Source: Candidatus Omnitrophota bacterium (GTDB taxonomy: Bacteria; Omnitrophota; Gorgyraeia; 2-01-FULL-45-10). From it: a stretch of 35,114 nt of DNA. Below, piece by piece: positions 9,294-17,239 of this stretch. Made by a program: the position numbers and the translations under genes. The notes below the pieces were generated by a model that was not told the origin of the DNA, made no database searches, and saw only the letters and a list, made by a program, of their open reading frames with translations. Within the stretch, counting starts at the first letter, position 1; every line of letters starts with the position of its first letter. The stretch is taken from contig JAQUQN010000004.1 of assembly GCA_028716065.1 (NCBI GenBank), forward strand, positions 1 to 35,114. The letters are read 5' to 3'.

Positions 9294-9336
9294 TGTGCTG
9301 TTGCACCTGTAACATACCTCCAATTATCCAGCATCC

Positions 9337-9368
9337 ATAGTAGGGGACATTTAAATGTCCCCTACTAT
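9337..9368. repeat. 32-bp perfect palindrome, GTAG-type REP-like element (copy A)
   Basis: ATAGTAGGGGACATTT|AAATGTCCCCTACTAT is its own reverse complement. It is related to the palindrome at 19727-19756. Confidence 0.8.
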
Positions 9369-9425
9369 TTAAATCCCTCTTTTTATATCACTTGTTAGGA
9401 ATCAAAAAATCTACCTAACTTTCTC

Positions 9426-9453
9426 TTGACTTAACGCAATTATATGATATATT
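9426..9453 (+). promoter_or_regulatory. sigma70 promoter for the riboswitch/giant gene leader
   Basis: TTGACT-16 nt-TATATT with TG at the extended -10 position. The predicted start site falls just before the aptamer. Confidence 0.6.
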
Positions 9454-9465
9454 TATACTACAGTA

Positions 9466-9556
9466 TATATTCTAGATAAAGGCAAATCCGCCGTAAGGCG
9501 GAGACGCAACATTCCAGATCTAGCATAAGATAGATGGCTGAATTGCCTAGAATATG
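9466..9556 (+). ncRNA. c-di-GMP-I (GEMM-I) riboswitch aptamer
   Basis: P1 ATATTCTAG/CTAGAATAT (9467-9475 with 9547-9555), then AAAGGCAAA, P2 TCCGCC-GTAA-GGCGGA with a GNRA loop, GACGCAA, P3 ATTC-CAG-ATCTA/TAGAT-CTG-GAAT, and TGCC. The equivalents of Vc2 G20, A47 and C92 are retained. Confidence 0.9.
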
Positions 9557-9578
9557 ACTTTTTAGGTGGTTCAGCCAT
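9534..9578 (+). promoter_or_regulatory. riboswitch expression platform: alternative 17-bp hairpin
   Basis: ATGGCTGAATTGCCTAG (9534-9550) pairs end to end with TTAGGTGGTTCAGCCAT (9562-9578), using 4 G-U pairs. It is mutually exclusive with aptamer P1/P3. Confidence 0.75.
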
Positions 9579-12500
9579 ATATATTTATGCAGATAATATA
9601 TAAATCCTCAATATTTAACTGGAAATTCATAAAGAAGACCCTTGCGGCCGTTCTGGCAGGGGTCTTTTTGTTTACGAATACTTTTAGCTGGGCGCAGGAA
9701 GAGAAGCTGTTCCTTACTGGAATGGGGAATACTTCTTCTTCCGGCCCGGCTAATACCTCCAAACTGGCCCCTAAACTTTTCCTGGCCAATGCCGAAAAGC
9801 GCGCGGAATTGCAGGCAGCGTTGATATGCGACCTCATCGAAAAAAACGCTAATTACGGCAAAAAGATTGATGAGGTTAATCTGAGAGATCTTCTTTTGTG
9901 GAAAGGCGCTAAGGACAGGGCCTTCGACAATTGCACATTTCAAATTCTGCCTGGAGAGATAAGGATAAATATACCCCAAAGCAACCTTAGCGTCCGTTAT
10001 TACGATCCACAGGTAGTGGGTAATGCCCTTCCGCCTTATTCCGATGTCCGCGACCTTAAAACACGGCCGATCGGCCCCTCGCCGTTTGATCCCGCGAGAC
10101 TTCAGAGACAGATAATCTACAGGGTAAGAGCGCTGCCGGAACCGCGCTCCGAAGAGACGTCAAAATCGCCTAGCCGGATATTCAGCATGTTTAGCGATAT
10201 GAAGGAAAATCCCGGATCAGATTATAAGAACATGCTTGGGGTATTACTTGAAAAAGCAGCTCATCTTGACAGGCCATTTGTATTAGAAATAAGGGACGAG
10301 GAAGGTAACCTCAAGAAGATTTCGATATATAGAAAAAATCTTGAAGGTGATTATGACAGGGAAGATATAAAAACTAAAGATACGAAGTATTTCGACCTCC
10401 TTGCGACAGAGGGAGCCGTCGAAGTGGCCGAAGTCAGGTTATCGAAGGATAATCTGATAATCGGTGTTACCAAATTAAGTTATGAAACTGATTTTAATAG
10501 AGTCAACATCGAAATGCGGGATATAAGGATTACGAAAGTCTTGGACGAATTGAAAAAGAGGCTTCCGATGTATGCCGAATTTATCGACGATCAGTATGAA
10601 TTGGGTTATCTTGGATGTAAAGAGATGGTCTACAAGTATGACGGTATTAACTGCCGCTACCGGATTTTACTCCCTCATTTCATAGACGAAGCCTTTAGAA
10701 AAGTGCGGCAAAAGAGAGGCTACGCGGACAACACGAGAATGGTATTTTTGAAAGCAGGGGCGGAACCTTTGGCCGAAATCGCCAGGGTGATGGCCCGCAT
10801 CGACAAAGGACGGTTTCCAGAAAGCGCTATTTGTAGCGTCTGGGGCACGATGGGTAATTATAAAGCAGTTAAAGAGGGCCTTGCGGCGCACGACCCTACC
10901 CAGGCGGCCTATTTCCTGAAATATCTCCACGACCATGGAGTTCTCGGACCGAATATAAACAATATTTTGTTCGTAGATACAGACTCCAGGATCGGATCTC
11001 GCTATGGCATGGTCTCCAGGACAGGTCCCCCCATAGGTACGGAGCTTCTCATCTATCGTACCCTATTAAACAGGGATGCTGTCAACGAAGCAAATAAGCT
11101 TTTCGGAAGAGACGGGTATGAATTTTCATGTTGGAATGAGAAAAATGGCGTTCGTTCGGCAGAGATGTTTTACATGTACATCGATCCGGATACAGTGAAG
11201 TTACCGGAATTTGCTCTGGCAGCGGAGGGTATATCCGGCGATGAACAGAAGGAATATGATACAAGGATGAATGTATCTTCTTTCAACCACGGTATTGATC
11301 TGAAAATAACAAGAAACAGGATATCTATGCTATGGGCGAAGGTGGACGATGTGTCAAAAACCGAATCAGTCGACGAAGAGTTTATTCTTAAAGATGATGG
11401 TACGGCAGGGCTGCGCAGCAGGAAACCCTACCGGCAACCGAATATGGGTGTAAGGCTCGAGATACAGAATGTGCTCGAATATGCCGGCTTCGTGATGGGG
11501 ACGCTCGATTTTATGGAGGCGCAGGGCTTCGACGTCTCCGAAGAGGCCGAGAGATACTTCGCGGAACTTGGCAGAAAATTTGAAGAAATCAGCGGGAAGA
11601 ATAGAGATAATATCAGTTTATCCAAGATGCAAGAACCATCTGTACTGACGGCATCCGCATTCGAAGATACCACGAAGCCCGGCAGCCTGCATTTTCTCGG
11701 TAAGATACTGGGAATACGCTACACGAGTTATTTTCACGCGCCTGTCATAGAGGAACTCTTCAAGATAGGGGGGCCTTTGACGTTATCTGCGATAGTGGAA
11801 AGACTCCACCCCGGCTGGCCTGTCCTGAACACGCTTGTATTCACGACTTTCCTCGCGGTTTTTGGCGTCACCTACATAATTCTTCACACGCTCAATGAAA
11901 GAGCGCCTCCCGAAGAAGCTACCGGAATAAAAGATAAGCTGAAATTTTATTATAATGAACTCAAATCCATCCGCTCTAACATCAAAGCCCTCACCAGGGA
12001 ACAAAAACTGAATATATTCCGCGGCCCCTTCCTGATAGCAGTGTCCGGAATCATAATGTCCATGATATTCATAACAGATCCATCGATGACCCTAATGAGC
12101 AGCATGCTCGCCCACCTGGTCATAGATGTTGGGATCGAGCACTTTAAGAACAATGATAAAACGCCGCCCGAGCCGGGCACGGCGGCGTACCAGAAGAATC
12201 TTGAACGTTTGAGAAGCAACCTGATAAAAGATCCTGGGAGCGTATCAACACGTGACGCTATGCGGAGTATATTGTATGAAGCAGGCATCGGCGTGAGGGA
12301 GCAGGTTTCTGATAATTTGATATCCAATCTTATATATGTTACGAGAGAACTCCTGATAAACCCCATACAATCAGCCGCATTATTGAAAAGGAATATTAAG
12401 AGCAGTTATGGGGTTGAGATGGATCTGCAGGATGTAAGGGACATCTATATATTATTGAGACGTTTGAGCGTTATCCAGGACCTCCTGACATACGAATCGG

Positions 12501-15500
12501 CAAGGCCGAGAGCGCTGAGCGTATTCAGAGAATTTTTGGCGCTAGAACCGGCCAGGATCGAAAGGATATTGGGGGGTGAAATAACGCCGTTGGCCCTTGA
12601 GATCCACCCAAGCCCGCGATGCAACTTCAGGTGCGCCCACTGTTTCAACGCGACGGCGTTGCAAAGGACCGGTGAAGTAAAAATAAAATCTTTTGCGGCT
12701 GCGGTGAGTCCCGAAGAGAAAGAGAGGGCGCTCGGGCTTATAAGCCAATATATCGCCAGCGGCGTCGACAAAATATATCTGAGTGGCGGTGGAGAGCCGT
12801 TCATGGAAGACCTGCATTCTTATATCGACCATATAAGGAAAACCAGCCCCGACATATATGTTTCCATAAATACGAATGGCGAGCTTCTTACAGAGAGAGA
12901 TATCGCGTTATGCGTCGCGAAGGTCAACAGGCTCTTTTTCTCCATGGATGCCGCGACTTCGCGCACGTTGGGGCGTCTGAAAGGCATAGAAGACAGCGAG
13001 AGTGAGGCGCGGTTCTTCAGGATCGTGAGCAATATGCGCCGGGCCGTGGCGACGAGGGATCAGCAAAGGATTGAAGGGAAGACTTCTCTGAAGATTGGCA
13101 TGGGTTTTGTCGTGGGCGAGATCAACTGTGTGGAAACGGAACAGTTCTTAAAGCTCGCGAAGGATACTGGAGTCGATTTTGTCAATTTCACCGCCCGGTT
13201 AGGTAAGGGCGAGTATGATTCAAAGATCTTGGATACGATCGAAAATATCTACCGCAAGGTAAGGGCGGGCGAGTTCGGCGGCATAGCCGTATTTTTTGAC
13301 GATTCATTCTCGCAATATCTGATGCAGAAAGAATTACGCGAGTCGAATGACGTAACCGGCAGAGAAGCGATGCTAGCAAAAGGTATCTGTTCGGTGGCCT
13401 CCGGCCTTTTGACGCCTGCTTATGCCGCTGGCGCAGGCTTTGTGTTTAGCTGCATCACTAAAGCCCAACCGGCAAATTCGAGCGACCGCTACAAGCTGTT
13501 CAATACGCGGCAGGTTGCTTTACGAAGCGTCAAGGAACTTATGGAGGATAAAAAAGCCGATTTGAGAGCATTAGACCCGGCCGAATGCGAGTATTGCAGG
13601 AAAGCGGATAAGTATATTAATGAGATAATAACAGCTATTAGAGAGGATGCAAAAGATGGTTTGAAAGTGTCTGAACTTCCGATAATTTTCTACGAGGACT
13701 CTTATCTGCGAACGATGGGCATAGGAAAAGGGGGCAGAGTCGATTTAGCCGGCTCGCAAGGGCCCGCCTTGTATCATTTGCCAGGAACGAAAACGTCGAG
13801 TTCAGGTACCGGCCCTGCGCTCTTTGTTGATCCGGACGGCACGGTGCGCGAGCTCAGTCAAGATGAACATAAGGAACTTAATCCAAAGCTTGCTGAAATA
13901 GTCGGTGACTTCGACAATCCCAATAAAGGTGTTGAGAAATTATCTCTGGGAAAGACAGTAGAGCTCTGCGGTCAAACGCATATAGGCCCGGATAAGAATA
14001 GAGGTCCTCCTGTATCGGTATACGTCATCGATGACGAAAAGCTCCCTGAAAAGTTCCAAAACGGCCTCATAACTCATGCCGGCACATTCAAAGGCAAGGC
14101 ATATAACCTCTTCATCCCGCGTTCAGTATACAACGTACTTCTTATATTAACACCAGCAGAACTACAGATCTGGCGCAACCACGAAGTCGGCCATCTCCTC
14201 GATCGCACTGCCAATATCACGCCTACAGAAGAAGAAAAAGAAGTAGCGAAGAAGATATATGAAGCTGCTAGGAAAGCCCCCGCGCCGGCAACGGCCGCGC
14301 CGCAGAAGAGGATAAGTCCGCTGAATCTTGAGAAAATGCCGGCCGGAGAGCTTTTATCCGCTTTGGGTCTAAAGGATCCTCGCAGCATAGAGGGAGCCGA
14401 TATTATCGGTGAAACAGAGGAATATGGTTATACAAGGCAAAGGATTAGCGTAAGAGAACAACTAGACCTTATTCAGCCGCCACGGGGCATATCGATTTTA
14501 CAGCGGGAGCTGGCCAACCCCGATGTCCTAAGGATTAAAGAATTCGACCTTATCTATAACAAAGATGGCCATTTGATAGCAGTCTTTCCTGTCCTGGCTC
14601 CCGGCATGAAACCGTCTGCCGATGATTTAAAATATTTTGATTTCAGCTATTATTATTTCGAAATTCCCAGCGTTAAGGATTCGGATGCGCGGGCTAAATG
14701 GACAGGATTCGCCCGTTCAAGAGAGGCGGATGCATCGTTGATAGAGGATTATAAAACGAGGCATGGTCTTGACGGAATAGAGATGGTCGGAAAGCATCAA
14801 TCGCCGTATATTTATATCGGCGTCAAAGGTGATATGGAGAATGGATGGGATCCTACCGAGATAATAATCGATGACCCTGACAATATCTTCCTGCCGGAAC
14901 CCGAGGATGGCATGGAGCAGATAATAATACCAGTTTTCCCAACGGTCTATTCGCCGGCGCATTGGATGCACAAGGGCGGTGATAAGAGGTATTATGATAA
15001 ATTTTATGAGGGTTCTCAACTGGCAAAGGGCCAGGATATACTGATAATCGGACCGGGTACGGGATGTGACACATGGCTCGCGTGGCTTAAGACGCGGAAT
15101 AAGATGTTCGCAGTAGGATATAACCCGCTGGAAATAGCCAACCTGCGCGCAACCGCTGGAATAGCCGGCTTCGAAGTAGAAGCGGTGGTCGGTGATAATA
15201 TAATCGATGAAGAAGGAAGGCCCAGGTTCGGAGAGAGGAAATTCGACCGTGTCTCCTGGAACATGCCCGCTTATAATCAGATCTATGATGTCGAAAAGCC
15301 CGGTCAGGTTATAAGATCACTTAGCGAGGCATGGGACGGGGATAAGGGGGGCGTTATCCTAAGGCGTTTCGCGAAAGGCCTTCCCGAAGTATTGAAACGG
15401 GGTAGTGGAGCGTTGTCACGGATCTGGAATCAATCTACCTATAACCCGGATATCGACATGATCATGGAAACCGGCGGAGCGAGAAATACTACCGACAGGC

Positions 15501-16798
15501 CTCTTGAGGTTGAATGGAAGAATTCCGCCTATATTATAAAATTGAAAGGCAATATTCAGGAGAAGATTATATCTGCACAGGGTACAGTTTCCGGAGATAT
15601 TAATGCTATAAGAAAAATGTTGGGGATCGAAGGCGAAGAAGAGAAGATAGTGGAGGAAAGAGCGTATAGTAACGGTATATATTATCGGGATCTTATTTCT
15701 TTTACTGAAAATTCAATAATAACGACGACTCGTATCGAACCGGCCGGCATGTCAGGAATGACGACAGACGGGGAAGGGATAAGGTGTTTCTATGAACATG
15801 AGATCGAATGGATACCCGGCAAAACAAAAATAGTTTACCGCAGGACCAAGGTAACCAAAAAAGAGGAAGTGAGCGCGAAAGAGACAGTTCGTGAAGAATT
15901 TGTAACATGCGTGTACAAGGGGCCTGAAGCGAGGGTGAAGATAGGCCTGAAAGACGGCAAACCTTTCCTCGTCATGAATGATAACGCGTTAGAATATTTC
16001 AGGCAGAAGGGTTTCGATATCAGGCGTCGTGAGGATAAGCCTTATCTTGCCATGGGGTGCTGGGGCGCGGTCCCTGAAGATAGACAGATAGCATATGTAG
16101 ACAAAAACGAAACGCTGTTCAAAGAGATGCTCGGCGAAGGGAAAGAACCGGTTCTATTGAGGGTTCCGGTGCAGGGTCTTGAGGCGATGGCCGTCGAAAA
16201 TGCCAGAGACTTCCTGGAAGCGTTCCAGAAAGCGCCCAACGCATATGTGGAATTATTTTCCACAACCGGTAGCGGTGAGGTAAACGCTGCTGATTATCAG
16301 AAAAAATACGGCTTTGAGAAAAAGTCCTTGCCCGAAGGTTTCATGAGGACAAGAAAGAATACAATAACCCTATTTGCCGCGTCAAAAGACGAGAATATTG
16401 ATAAACCGAGCATTGATTCAAGGCTTGGGTCCATTGGCATGAAACAGGAAGATACGCTTCTTTCCCCGATAATCTTGGGGTGCGATGAGGCCGGCCTCGT
16501 TAGGGCGACCATTTTCGGGTTAAAGATGCTCGAAATATCAAAAACTAGGCAAAATAAAACCAGAGAGAAGCTTTTAGCCGAGGTGTTGATGGCCTTGCTC
16601 GACTATAAAAACGCCTGCGATCCCGGCACGCCTTTTGAATTCAGTCATAAAGAGGTAGAAGATATATTGGGCCTTATCGAAGGCAATATTAACAGGGTCG
16701 TTGCCGCGTTAAAGAAGTTGCTGCAGTTCCTGCCCGCAAAACCGATAGACGGCGCAGCCCTGATAAGGCACGCGATAAAGGTCATGACAGCCGCCTAA
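9566..16798 (+). CDS. giant (2410 aa) exported/membrane mosaic protein: signal peptide, CPBP-like TM segment, radical SAM, HExxH domain, class I SAM methyltransferase (likely start ATG 9587)
   Basis: Signal KKTLAAVLAGVFLFTNTFSWA; APVIEE/F..H/H...D TM motifs; CNFRCAHC (12620-12643) with LSGGGEP and TNG; HEVGH (14180-14194); ILIIGPGTG and FDRVSWNMP. Confidence 0.9.
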   Translation: MVQPYIFMQIIYKSSIFNWKFIKKTLAAVLAGVFLFTNTFSWAQEEKLFLTGMGNTSSSGPANTSKLAPKLFLANAEKRAELQAALICDLIEKNANYGKKIDEVNLRDLLLWKGAKDRAFDNCTFQILPGEIRINIPQSNLSVRYYDPQVVGNALPPYSDVRDLKTRPIGPSPFDPARLQRQIIYRVRALPEPRSEETSKSPSRIFSMFSDMKENPGSDYKNMLGVLLEKAAHLDRPFVLEIRDEEGNLKKISIYRKNLEGDYDREDIKTKDTKYFDLLATEGAVEVAEVRLSKDNLIIGVTKLSYETDFNRVNIEMRDIRITKVLDELKKRLPMYAEFIDDQYELGYLGCKEMVYKYDGINCRYRILLPHFIDEAFRKVRQKRGYADNTRMVFLKAGAEPLAEIARVMARIDKGRFPESAICSVWGTMGNYKAVKEGLAAHDPTQAAYFLKYLHDHGVLGPNINNILFVDTDSRIGSRYGMVSRTGPPIGTELLIYRTLLNRDAVNEANKLFGRDGYEFSCWNEKNGVRSAEMFYMYIDPDTVKLPEFALAAEGISGDEQKEYDTRMNVSSFNHGIDLKITRNRISMLWAKVDDVSKTESVDEEFILKDDGTAGLRSRKPYRQPNMGVRLEIQNVLEYAGFVMGTLDFMEAQGFDVSEEAERYFAELGRKFEEISGKNRDNISLSKMQEPSVLTASAFEDTTKPGSLHFLGKILGIRYTSYFHAPVIEELFKIGGPLTLSAIVERLHPGWPVLNTLVFTTFLAVFGVTYIILHTLNERAPPEEATGIKDKLKFYYNELKSIRSNIKALTREQKLNIFRGPFLIAVSGIIMSMIFITDPSMTLMSSMLAHLVIDVGIEHFKNNDKTPPEPGTAAYQKNLERLRSNLIKDPGSVSTRDAMRSILYEAGIGVREQVSDNLISNLIYVTRELLINPIQSAALLKRNIKSSYGVEMDLQDVRDIYILLRRLSVIQDLLTYESARPRALSVFREFLALEPARIERILGGEITPLALEIHPSPRCNFRCAHCFNATALQRTGEVKIKSFAAAVSPEEKERALGLISQYIASGVDKIYLSGGGEPFMEDLHSYIDHIRKTSPDIYVSINTNGELLTERDIALCVAKVNRLFFSMDAATSRTLGRLKGIEDSESEARFFRIVSNMRRAVATRDQQRIEGKTSLKIGMGFVVGEINCVETEQFLKLAKDTGVDFVNFTARLGKGEYDSKILDTIENIYRKVRAGEFGGIAVFFDDSFSQYLMQKELRESNDVTGREAMLAKGICSVASGLLTPAYAAGAGFVFSCITKAQPANSSDRYKLFNTRQVALRSVKELMEDKKADLRALDPAECEYCRKADKYINEIITAIREDAKDGLKVSELPIIFYEDSYLRTMGIGKGGRVDLAGSQGPALYHLPGTKTSSSGTGPALFVDPDGTVRELSQDEHKELNPKLAEIVGDFDNPNKGVEKLSLGKTVELCGQTHIGPDKNRGPPVSVYVIDDEKLPEKFQNGLITHAGTFKGKAYNLFIPRSVYNVLLILTPAELQIWRNHEVGHLLDRTANITPTEEEKEVAKKIYEAARKAPAPATAAPQKRISPLNLEKMPAGELLSALGLKDPRSIEGADIIGETEEYGYTRQRISVREQLDLIQPPRGISILQRELANPDVLRIKEFDLIYNKDGHLIAVFPVLAPGMKPSADDLKYFDFSYYYFEIPSVKDSDARAKWTGFARSREADASLIEDYKTRHGLDGIEMVGKHQSPYIYIGVKGDMENGWDPTEIIIDDPDNIFLPEPEDGMEQIIIPVFPTVYSPAHWMHKGGDKRYYDKFYEGSQLAKGQDILIIGPGTGCDTWLAWLKTRNKMFAVGYNPLEIANLRATAGIAGFEVEAVVGDNIIDEEGRPRFGERKFDRVSWNMPAYNQIYDVEKPGQVIRSLSEAWDGDKGGVILRRFAKGLPEVLKRGSGALSRIWNQSTYNPDIDMIMETGGARNTTDRPLEVEWKNSAYIIKLKGNIQEKIISAQGTVSGDINAIRKMLGIEGEEEKIVEERAYSNGIYYRDLISFTENSIITTTRIEPAGMSGMTTDGEGIRCFYEHEIEWIPGKTKIVYRRTKVTKKEEVSAKETVREEFVTCVYKGPEARVKIGLKDGKPFLVMNDNALEYFRQKGFDIRRREDKPYLAMGCWGAVPEDRQIAYVDKNETLFKEMLGEGKEPVLLRVPVQGLEAMAVENARDFLEAFQKAPNAYVELFSTTGSGEVNAADYQKKYGFEKKSLPEGFMRTRKNTITLFAASKDENIDKPSIDSRLGSIGMKQEDTLLSPIILGCDEAGLVRATIFGLKMLEISKTRQNKTREKLLAEVLMALLDYKNACDPGTPFEFSHKEVEDILGLIEGNINRVVAALKKLLQFLPAKPIDGAALIRHAIKVMTAA

Positions 16799-16882: not shown

Positions 16883-17239
16883 ATGAAGAAAATCGTAATA
16901 GTAATATTAGCGTTGGCATTTGTAGCGGGTCTCTCTTACGCGGCGGAGAAGCAGCCTAAGGCCACCGAGCCGGTAGGGGCTGTCGTGGAGACGACGGGTG
17001 TATTCGTAGGTAAGATCGTAGGTGCGGCCGAGAGGGCCACCACCGGCAGCGATAAGATCACCGTTCAGAGCGATACGGGTGAGACGAGGGTATTTCCTTT
17101 TGACCAGACGGTAAAGGTCCTCGATACCTCGTTTCATGCCCTTACTTTGAATCAACTGAATCCTGGCGAAAAGGTGACGGTCGAATATTCAAAGACAGAC
17201 AAGGCGCAGAAGGCCAAGACGATAAAGGTAGCGAAGTAA
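16883..17239 (+). CDS. small secreted beta-rich protein (OB-fold/DUF5666-like, tentative)
   Basis: Classic signal peptide; FVGKIV...ITVQ...VLD...LNPGEKVTVEY pattern. Confidence 0.75.
   Translation: MKKIVIVILALAFVAGLSYAAEKQPKATEPVGAVVETTGVFVGKIVGAAERATTGSDKITVQSDTGETRVFPFDQTVKVLDTSFHALTLNQLNPGEKVTVEYSKTDKAQKAKTIKVAK

Follow-up and report, generated by a model that had tools for sequence, protein, structure and literature searches.

Introduction

The closest studied counterpart of the system described here is Bc2, a class-I cyclic di-GMP (c-di-GMP) aptamer located upstream of cap, the gene for a collagen adhesion protein, in Bacillus thuringiensis BMB171 (PMC4933901). Bc2 works as a terminator/antiterminator ON switch, repressed by default and de-repressed at high c-di-GMP, and its terminator directly adjoins the open reading frame (ORF) for an exported protein of large size (PMC4933901). 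Here, we analyzed the leader of a 2,403-codon gene on a 35-kb stretch of DNA, hereafter the window, which lies on contig C4 of the assembly of a Candidatus Omnitrophota bacterium (the source genome, G000). Judged from the sequence alone, this leader combines a class-I aptamer with genetic ON logic, as Bc2 does. However, it comes from a different phylum, its U-tract is degraded, the helix of its OFF state covers the AUG, and the protein behind it combines enzyme-like domains (radical SAM and methyltransferase-like) in a mosaic, whereas the target of Bc2 is an adhesin. Positions 9426-9594 of the window are best explained as a self-contained leader made of a promoter, a class-I c-di-GMP aptamer, and an overlapping terminator-derived hairpin. 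We consider it likely that this leader is a genuine c-di-GMP-I ON switch, which would bind c-di-GMP and control the 2,403-codon gene.

The type example of the c-di-GMP-I or GEMM-I class (RF01051) is Vc2 from Vibrio cholerae, with which the aptamer of the window shares the P1-P2-P3 junction, the positions G20, A47, and C92, and a GNRA loop on P2. In Vc2, this loop is GAAA and is accompanied by an 11-nt tetraloop receptor, whereas the window has a GUAA loop and no 11-nt receptor, and the expression platforms of the two differ. RF03167 and GEMM-Ib have the fold and the clan in common with the window, and the short, receptor-less P3 of the window resembles the RF03167 consensus. Yet the window carries A and not G at position 47, and G and not A at position 20. 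Aptamers of this class and terminator platforms of the ON type are both established already, and the switch itself is textbook.

To our knowledge, neither a function nor a mode of regulation is known for the long and giant mosaic proteins of Omnitrophota. The giants described so far, the 'Archaeovorins', contain radical SAM, methyltransferase, and GGDEF domains, and pilZ genes lie near their genes (bioRxiv 10.1101/2023.11.21.568195, 10.64898/2026.06.07.730766). Like them, the window protein starts at its N-terminus with a membrane or signal segment, behind which unrelated, normally cytoplasmic enzyme domains are lined up, although with 2,403 amino acids it stands at the short end. Whereas pilZ genes adjoin many of the giants, the ORF just past the window gene (16883-17239, 118 aa) gave no PilZ or other credible match to Pfam. 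The word 'riboswitch' is absent from both giant-gene papers, and full-text literature searches on riboswitches and c-di-GMP in Omnitrophota brought up only papers on unrelated subjects.

Identity of the aptamer

An earlier model-made reading of the bare letters, here called the sequence-only reading, had described a GEMM-I aptamer in the leader and had proposed a search with the Rfam c-di-GMP-I model. This search returned RF01051 above its gathering score of 35 bits. The match spans 9471-9550 on the + strand with 59.1 bits (E 2.9e-9) and covers model positions 1-87 of 87, and the scan of the entire 35-kb window matched no other Rfam family. The details given by that reading, namely a 9-bp P1, a GNRA loop, and equivalents of G20, A47, and C92, were confirmed by the alignments (Table 1).

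P1, seen both by reading the sequence and in the fold of the aptamer segment, pairs AUAUUCUAG (9467-9475) with CUAGAAUAU (9547-9555) over 9 bp. P2 pairs UCCGCC with GGCGGA (9487-9492 with 9497-9502) around the GUAA loop at 9493-9496, and the equivalents of G21-C22 and G45-C46 bring 9482-9483 together with 9506-9507. P3 extends from 9510 to 9544. The three-helix architecture is thereby complete, with 9 bp in P1, 6+2 bp in P2, and at least 11 pairs in P3. The role of G20 is known from published Vc2 structures, and A47 is the base intercalated between the two guanines of the ligand. A guanine at position 20 goes with specificity for c-di-GMP, whereas an adenine marks the GEMM-Ib aptamers that sense cyclic GMP-AMP (cGAMP), a criterion reportedly due to Kellenberger and to Nelson, both in 2015.

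The aptamer is placed in the 5' leader, on the gene's own strand, of a genome equipped with c-di-GMP proteins: profile searches gave 11 GGDEF and 11 PilZ matches, in addition to Rho and RNase III. As far as alignments to two covariance models can tell, it is almost certainly a genuine class-I c-di-GMP aptamer with the canonical G20, A47, and C92.

Table 1. Features of the leader and of the gene behind it, in window coordinates
Feature	Position	Strand	Description
Sigma-70-type promoter	9426-9453	+	-35 TTGACT at 9426-9431, 16-nt spacer, extended -10 TG-n-TATATT to 9453
Extended -10 hexamer	9448-9453	+	TATATT, preceded by TG-n
c-di-GMP-I aptamer, complete	9467-9555	+	RF01051 match and RF03167 alignment covering the P1 pairs
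G20 equivalent	9481	+	Aligned to the first G of consensus GGCAAA (RF01051 and RF03167 alignments)
A47 equivalent	9508	+	GACGCAA aligned to the RF01051 consensus GACGCAAA
C92 equivalent	9546	+	First C of GCC, directly before the P1 3' strand; UUGCC aligned to UgCC / UGCc
OFF-state terminator-type hairpin	9534-9578	+	19 bp, 9534-9552 with 9560-9578; 7-nt loop 9553-9559
Extended OFF-state helix	9518-9594	+	33 bp, 9518-9552 with 9560-9594 (minimum-free-energy fold)
AGGTGG	9564-9569	+	Inside the 3' arm of the hairpin; resembles a Shine-Dalgarno sequence, 17 nt from ATG 9587
Degenerate U-tract	9579-9590	+	AUAUAUUUAUGC, overlapping the start codon
Regulated gene	9587-16798	+	2,403 codons plus stop; mosaic protein with N-terminal signal or anchor segment
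Conserved head, aa 1-192	9587-10162	+	Signal/anchor segment, NTKLAP motif, ~130-aa domain ending RQIIxRV/I-x-ALP
Radical SAM domain, aa 1007-1151	12605-13039	+	PF04055, 46.4 bits, E 6e-12; CxxxCxxC motif
S-adenosylmethionine (SAM)-dependent methyltransferase-like region, aa 1813-1942	15023-15412	+	Weak TIGR00537 (HemK-related) match, E 1.9e-6, under cut-off

The overlapping hairpin and the folding of the leader

The sequence-only reading had also described a 17-bp hairpin that excludes the aptamer. The exclusivity stands, and the length needs correction to 19 bp, or to 33 bp in the minimum-free-energy fold. The 19-bp hairpin has a folding energy of -26.1 kcal/mol with 6 G-C pairs and is the strongest among the five orthologues compared below. 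Its 5' arm runs from the 3' part of P3 through C92 into the 3' strand of P1. Because this arm (9534-9552) is aptamer sequence, aptamer and hairpin are mutually exclusive, and ligand binding must therefore prevent the hairpin, which amounts to ON logic. An alternative anti-terminator was not visible in the leader. It is thus very likely that the leader follows ON logic and that the gene would be switched on by c-di-GMP. In a small search, miRNA-like Rfam families also gave hits on the hairpin; these lay far under their cut-offs and were dismissed as noise caused by the hairpin shape.

The tract behind the stem (AUAUAUUUAUGCAGAU) complements the apical part of P3, which adds 14 pairs to the helix. 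In this extension, 9518-9532 pairs with 9580-9594 and the AUG at 9587-9589 is buried against CAU at 9524-9526. The extension is worth -10.3 kcal/mol, a value equalled by only 2 of 500 composition-matched shuffled tails; the same test in the nearest relative was not significant (67 of 500). Folding of the leader yields -54.3 kcal/mol, compared with -26.7 +/- 3.6 kcal/mol for its shuffles (z = -7.75), none of 200 being as good. The aptamer pairs alone account for -26.3 kcal/mol, the best fold with the aptamer enforced reaches -35.9 kcal/mol, and the unconstrained fold -57.4 kcal/mol. Enforcing the aptamer raises the probability that the AUG is unpaired from 0.001 in the free ensemble to 0.51.

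Directly after the hairpin, the window reads AUAUAUUUAU, with 5 T in 8 positions. This tract was accepted by a loose terminator scan, but its T-tail score is only 1.33, the second lowest among 31 leaders of the same architecture (median about 4.6), and the four bases adjoining the stem are AUAU. The sequence-only reading had rightly called this U-tract weak.

That reading had further pointed to AGGTGG as a Shine-Dalgarno-like sequence buried in the hairpin. Its location in the 3' arm, 17 nt from the ATG, proved correct; its assumed role did not hold up. Among 488 frames of the source genome with near-unambiguous ATG starts, Shine-Dalgarno-like cores peak 4-10 nt before the ATG and drop to background beyond 14 nt, so that a 17-nt spacing is at background frequency, and an alignment showed that AGGTGG is absent from the four orthologous leaders. 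We thus rejected this candidate, and AGGTGG is probably not a Shine-Dalgarno sequence. A switch that sequesters its Shine-Dalgarno sequence would have a functional one 4-10 nt before the start, masked in one of the two states; here, no such sequence was found, and it is the AUG itself that becomes masked. The ATG follows the stem by 8 nt in the window, and likewise in G006. At this distance, the hairpin alone would be expected to block the ribosome. The ATG also falls on one alignment column in three of four leaders.

Conservation and spread of the leader

Orthologous leaders were found by searching with the first 700 residues of the protein within the family. Only residues ~11-190 had homologues, which are located at the N-termini of frames ranging from 601 to 5,311 codons. 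The same promoter, aptamer, and hairpin recur in four family genomes (G017, G020, G024, and G006), where these leaders precede genes with the same 190-residue head; the frame in G006 has 2,448 codons. We aligned the four orthologous leaders with that of the window. Across these five sequences, 95.7% of the cells in the aptamer helices are paired, with compensatory changes in P2 and P3, and 94% of those in the terminator helix are paired, with 8 of its 17 pairs varying on one side and yet staying paired; with few and related sequences, these pair counts are supportive but short of proof. One P3 pair covaries from C-G to U-A, and its 3' base (G or A) also pairs with an invariant U in the terminator. 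A single nucleotide thus satisfies both structures.

The hairpins of the orthologues are followed by the U-tracts UUUUUGUUUAU, CUUUUUAUUUAU, UUUUAUUUU, and UUCUAUUUAUG, and on this pattern of stem and tract they are ordinary intrinsic terminators. These clear U-tracts suggest that termination/antitermination was the ancestral mode of control. In the copy of the window, the platform derived from a terminator retains little of its U-tract and has acquired base pairs across the start codon.

Two leaders deviate in their architecture. The leader of G024 (L040:1252-1463, on G024:C36) carries an insertion of ~75 nt within P2, which is itself strongly structured, and Rfam misses this aptamer at E<0.01. 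At L046:~850-1000 (G028:C63), a short leader lacking the riboswitch separates the conserved promoter (CTTTCTCTTGATTTAAC ... TATGGTATAAT) from a homologous head, and it looks like aptamer and terminator have been lost there.

Across the class, 401 genomes were scanned with R1, a covariance model for this leader, and 112 of them contain full-length matches. Inspection was confined to the top matches, which comprise 27 new leader loci. Nearly all top matches possess the complement of the 3' side of the aptamer followed by a run of T. The first downstream frame spans 998-3,733 codons at 15 of the 27 loci (four of these frames run off the contig) and fewer than 400 codons at eight; it is cut by a contig end at three, and at the remaining locus no frame of at least 80 codons was found. 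Counted over the 23 loci with a measurable frame, 15 precede about 1,000-3,700 codons. The ON-type platform in front of a long gene that the sequence-only reading had proposed is thus not only present in the window but conserved in its orthologues and recurrent across the class.

A second conserved element, TTGGTCTGR ... AAGGGTGGCnYTATCCTTCC, occurs 20-40 nt past the terminator T-tract and before the ORF in L053, L054, L056, L064, L065, and L066. It possibly contains an AAGGGU/AUCCUU hairpin and is absent from the window.

RF01051 itself is widespread, with six matches above the cut-off in the source genome and matches in 58 of 61 relatives, at a maximum of 16 per genome. The best plain RF01051 matches in the relatives have mixed targets, including small secreted proteins as well as proteins that, judging from their N-terminal sequences, are pilin-like or haemagglutinin-like. 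Within the source genome, three near-identical c-di-GMP-I leaders (G000 C22:4333-4413, C112:3198-3278, and C171:790-870) possess clean ON-type terminators (ACCAGGTTTTTTATTTA) and well-placed Shine-Dalgarno sequences (AAGGTGAT), and the genes behind them encode paralogous, secreted proteins rich in YD-type repeats, the one on C22 being 1,210 aa long. At G000 C8:23456-23536, a match below the threshold (28.7 bits), followed by a terminator and an ORF for a secreted protein, could be a divergent or decayed aptamer. Pairs of RF01051 matches lying 60-170 nt apart on one strand in three relatives (G039:C17:5338-5565, G054:C45:15052-15414, and G038:C40:9458-9803) suggest tandem c-di-GMP riboswitches.

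The sequence-only reading had also raised the question of whether other giant genes in the genome carry the same leader. The source genome contains 39 frames of at least 1000 codons, the largest, truncated at contig ends, exceeding 5,200 codons, and two of the long frames, on C7 (4,157 aa) and C23 (2,226 aa), have GGDEF domains inside. RF01051 lies upstream of 2 of the 23 frames of at least 1000 codons whose 5' end is inside the contig. The idea that all giant genes of the genome share the leader was thus rejected; it is typical of a subset of the long genes and no general mark of them.

Promoter and regulated gene

The promoter that the sequence-only reading had placed upstream of the aptamer was recovered by a motif scan, in which the site agrees with the consensus at 10 of 12 positions and includes the TG of an extended -10 element. 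It is kept in the four orthologous leaders as CTTTCTnTTGAyTTAAC ... TATGrTATAaT. We infer a transcription start near 9460, that is, 6-7 nt ahead of P1. Right before the -35 hexamer, a CTTTCT block (9415-9431 together with the hexamer) is invariant in the window, L038, L039, and L042 and occurs in L040 and L046 as well; it may be an UP element or the site of a regulator. Further upstream, between the preceding gene and the promoter, lies a perfect 30-nt palindrome, TAGTAGGGGACATTTAAATGTCCCCTACTA (9335-9364), for which the terminator scan made no call.

The protein encoded behind the leader has few recognizable relatives. In an index of 5.8 billion proteins, the whole protein found only three partial homologues covering 10-14% of it, two of which are named Candidatus Omnitrophota/Omnitrophica, and the head alone found none. 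The head matched no Pfam family, its AlphaFold2 model reached a pLDDT of 62, and a Foldseek search against the Protein Data Bank (PDB) returned nothing with E below 0.6. It is conserved together with the riboswitch leader, and the sequences diverge fully beyond it. In the body of the protein, several radical SAM NCBIfam models match the radical SAM domain under their cut-offs, and the translated methyltransferase-like region contains a GxGxG-type motif, ILIIGPGTG.

The nine long proteins behind the leader that were scanned are mosaics, four of them without any Pfam match. Domains found in the long leader-linked proteins include SNF2 helicase with methyltransferase, cytidylate kinase, radical SAM with B12, HD, and UDPGP, and PfkB. 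Most of these proteins show the N-terminal pattern basic-x-IA-x-VCLF-x-N-x-I-x-WA. The window protein shares with the other long leader-linked proteins only the head and one internal module.

Discussion

The computations established the identity of the aptamer, the mutual exclusivity of the two structures, and the conservation of both, and they point to the following mechanism. c-di-GMP would bind the finished aptamer, complete at 9555, during transcription, thereby locking P1 and P3. The locked aptamer would keep 9534-9552 out of the hairpin, so that the polymerase goes on, the AUG region stays open, and the 7.2-kb gene is expressed. When ligand is absent, the much more stable hairpin would form and the gene would be shut off. 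For the copy in the window, the terminator would be expected to leak and the initiation site to be occluded as well. Rho-dependent polarity over the untranslated 7.2-kb frame could possibly reinforce the OFF state, as could cutting of the 33-bp duplex by RNase III.

Several observations weigh against this interpretation. The weak U-tract argues against efficient termination, and the lack of a well-placed Shine-Dalgarno sequence makes initiation at ATG 9587 hard to account for even in the ON state. Even with the aptamer enforced, the region of the 30S footprint is on average only 33% unpaired. The columns of the 11-nt tetraloop receptor in P3 are gaps in the RF01051 alignment, so that tertiary docking must use another contact in place of the canonical receptor; the GUAA loop may dock onto the CU:AG step at 9520-9521 / 9532-9533, within the invariant GAUCUAG. 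Transcription might also read through from the upstream gene, since the palindrome at ~9335-9364 was not scored as a terminator. Moreover, the OFF fold surpasses the aptamer fold in stability by ~21 kcal/mol. The choice between ON and OFF must then be kinetic and made co-transcriptionally, and we assume that the chosen state is subsequently trapped. Vc2 releases its ligand very slowly, which is consistent with such kinetic trapping. Lastly, the source genome is a metagenome-assembled genome of an uncultured organism, 1.40 Mb in 174 contigs and 75% complete.

Could the aptamer respond to something else, or the switch work the other way? A different cyclic dinucleotide, be it 3',3'-cGAMP or the ligand of the c-di-GMP-I-GGC variant, is the most improbable of the alternatives that we weighed. 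The variant family RF03167 did come out best by E-value in a small search, with 56.7 bits, but this score falls under its gathering score of 59 bits, and the G47 that defines the variant is A9508 here; GEMM-Ib was likewise rejected because position 20 is G9481 and not A. It is hardly more probable that c-di-GMP represses the gene or that the leader is a relic on which the ligand has no effect. Such an OFF switch would be at odds with the lack of a visible alternative anti-terminator and with a terminator whose 5' arm is itself aptamer sequence, both of which favor ON logic, and a relic would hardly have kept all of its ligand-contact and helix features intact and conserved.

The level at which the ON switch acts is a question that the sequence-only reading had already posed. 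The related leaders are terminator-type, with clear U-tracts, whereas the degraded U-tract and the OFF helix over the AUG indicate that translation initiation is probably a further, or even the main, point of action of the copy in the window. Control might be purely transcriptional if the 19-bp hairpin and AUAUAUUUAU terminate well, perhaps helped by NusA/NusG, and if the pairing of the AUG is incidental. This view draws on the hairpin and U-tract present in all orthologous and most class-wide leaders, on the acceptance of the site by the terminator scan (5 T in 8), on a hairpin that at -26.1 kcal/mol tops the five orthologues, and on the published precedent of Bc2 (PMC4933901). We nevertheless regard it as unlikely, because only one of the 31 leaders has a T-tail score below the 1.33 found here, the stem is flanked by AUAU, and an extension covering the AUG is improbable for the base composition (2 of 500). 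Somewhat less likely still is a purely translational switch, in which transcription always reads through and the AUG and the upstream ribosome landing zone are concealed in the 33-bp helix unless ligand is bound. The pairing of the AUG with CAU 9524-9526, whose release by the aptamer takes the unpaired probability from 0.001 to 0.51, fits such a switch, as do the degraded U-tract, an AUG separated from the stem by only 8 nt, the spacing also seen in the nearest relative L042, and a Rho factor encoded in the genome that could add polarity. However, an OFF fold that is ahead by ~21 kcal/mol at equilibrium could hardly be undone once transcription is over, AGGTGG does not lie where a Shine-Dalgarno sequence should, and the platform is clearly terminator-derived. 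Termination and start-site occlusion are not mutually exclusive. In the copy of the window, we think it somewhat probable that start-site occlusion contributes substantially, and for a substantial contribution of intrinsic termination the arguments are evenly balanced. This copy of the ON switch may be changing over from terminator control to start-codon occlusion.

Conservation covers the head and the leader, the protein bodies having next to nothing in common, and 15 of 23 new top loci precede frames of about 1,000-3,700 codons. On these grounds, we tentatively propose, without yet favoring it, that the promoter, the c-di-GMP-I ON leader, and the signal-anchor head of ~190 aa form a portable 5' cassette that, within this class of Omnitrophota, has been placed before many enzyme mosaics unrelated to one another and that would define a c-di-GMP regulon of long mosaic proteins.

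In other bacteria, high c-di-GMP usually accompanies the attached or sessile state. The ON-type switch predicts that the window protein is made when c-di-GMP is high, and because the same type of leader stands before many long genes of the class, this prediction may hold more widely. The recurrent link between the leader and long genes thus offers a clue, testable without cultivation, to when these enigmatic long genes are made.

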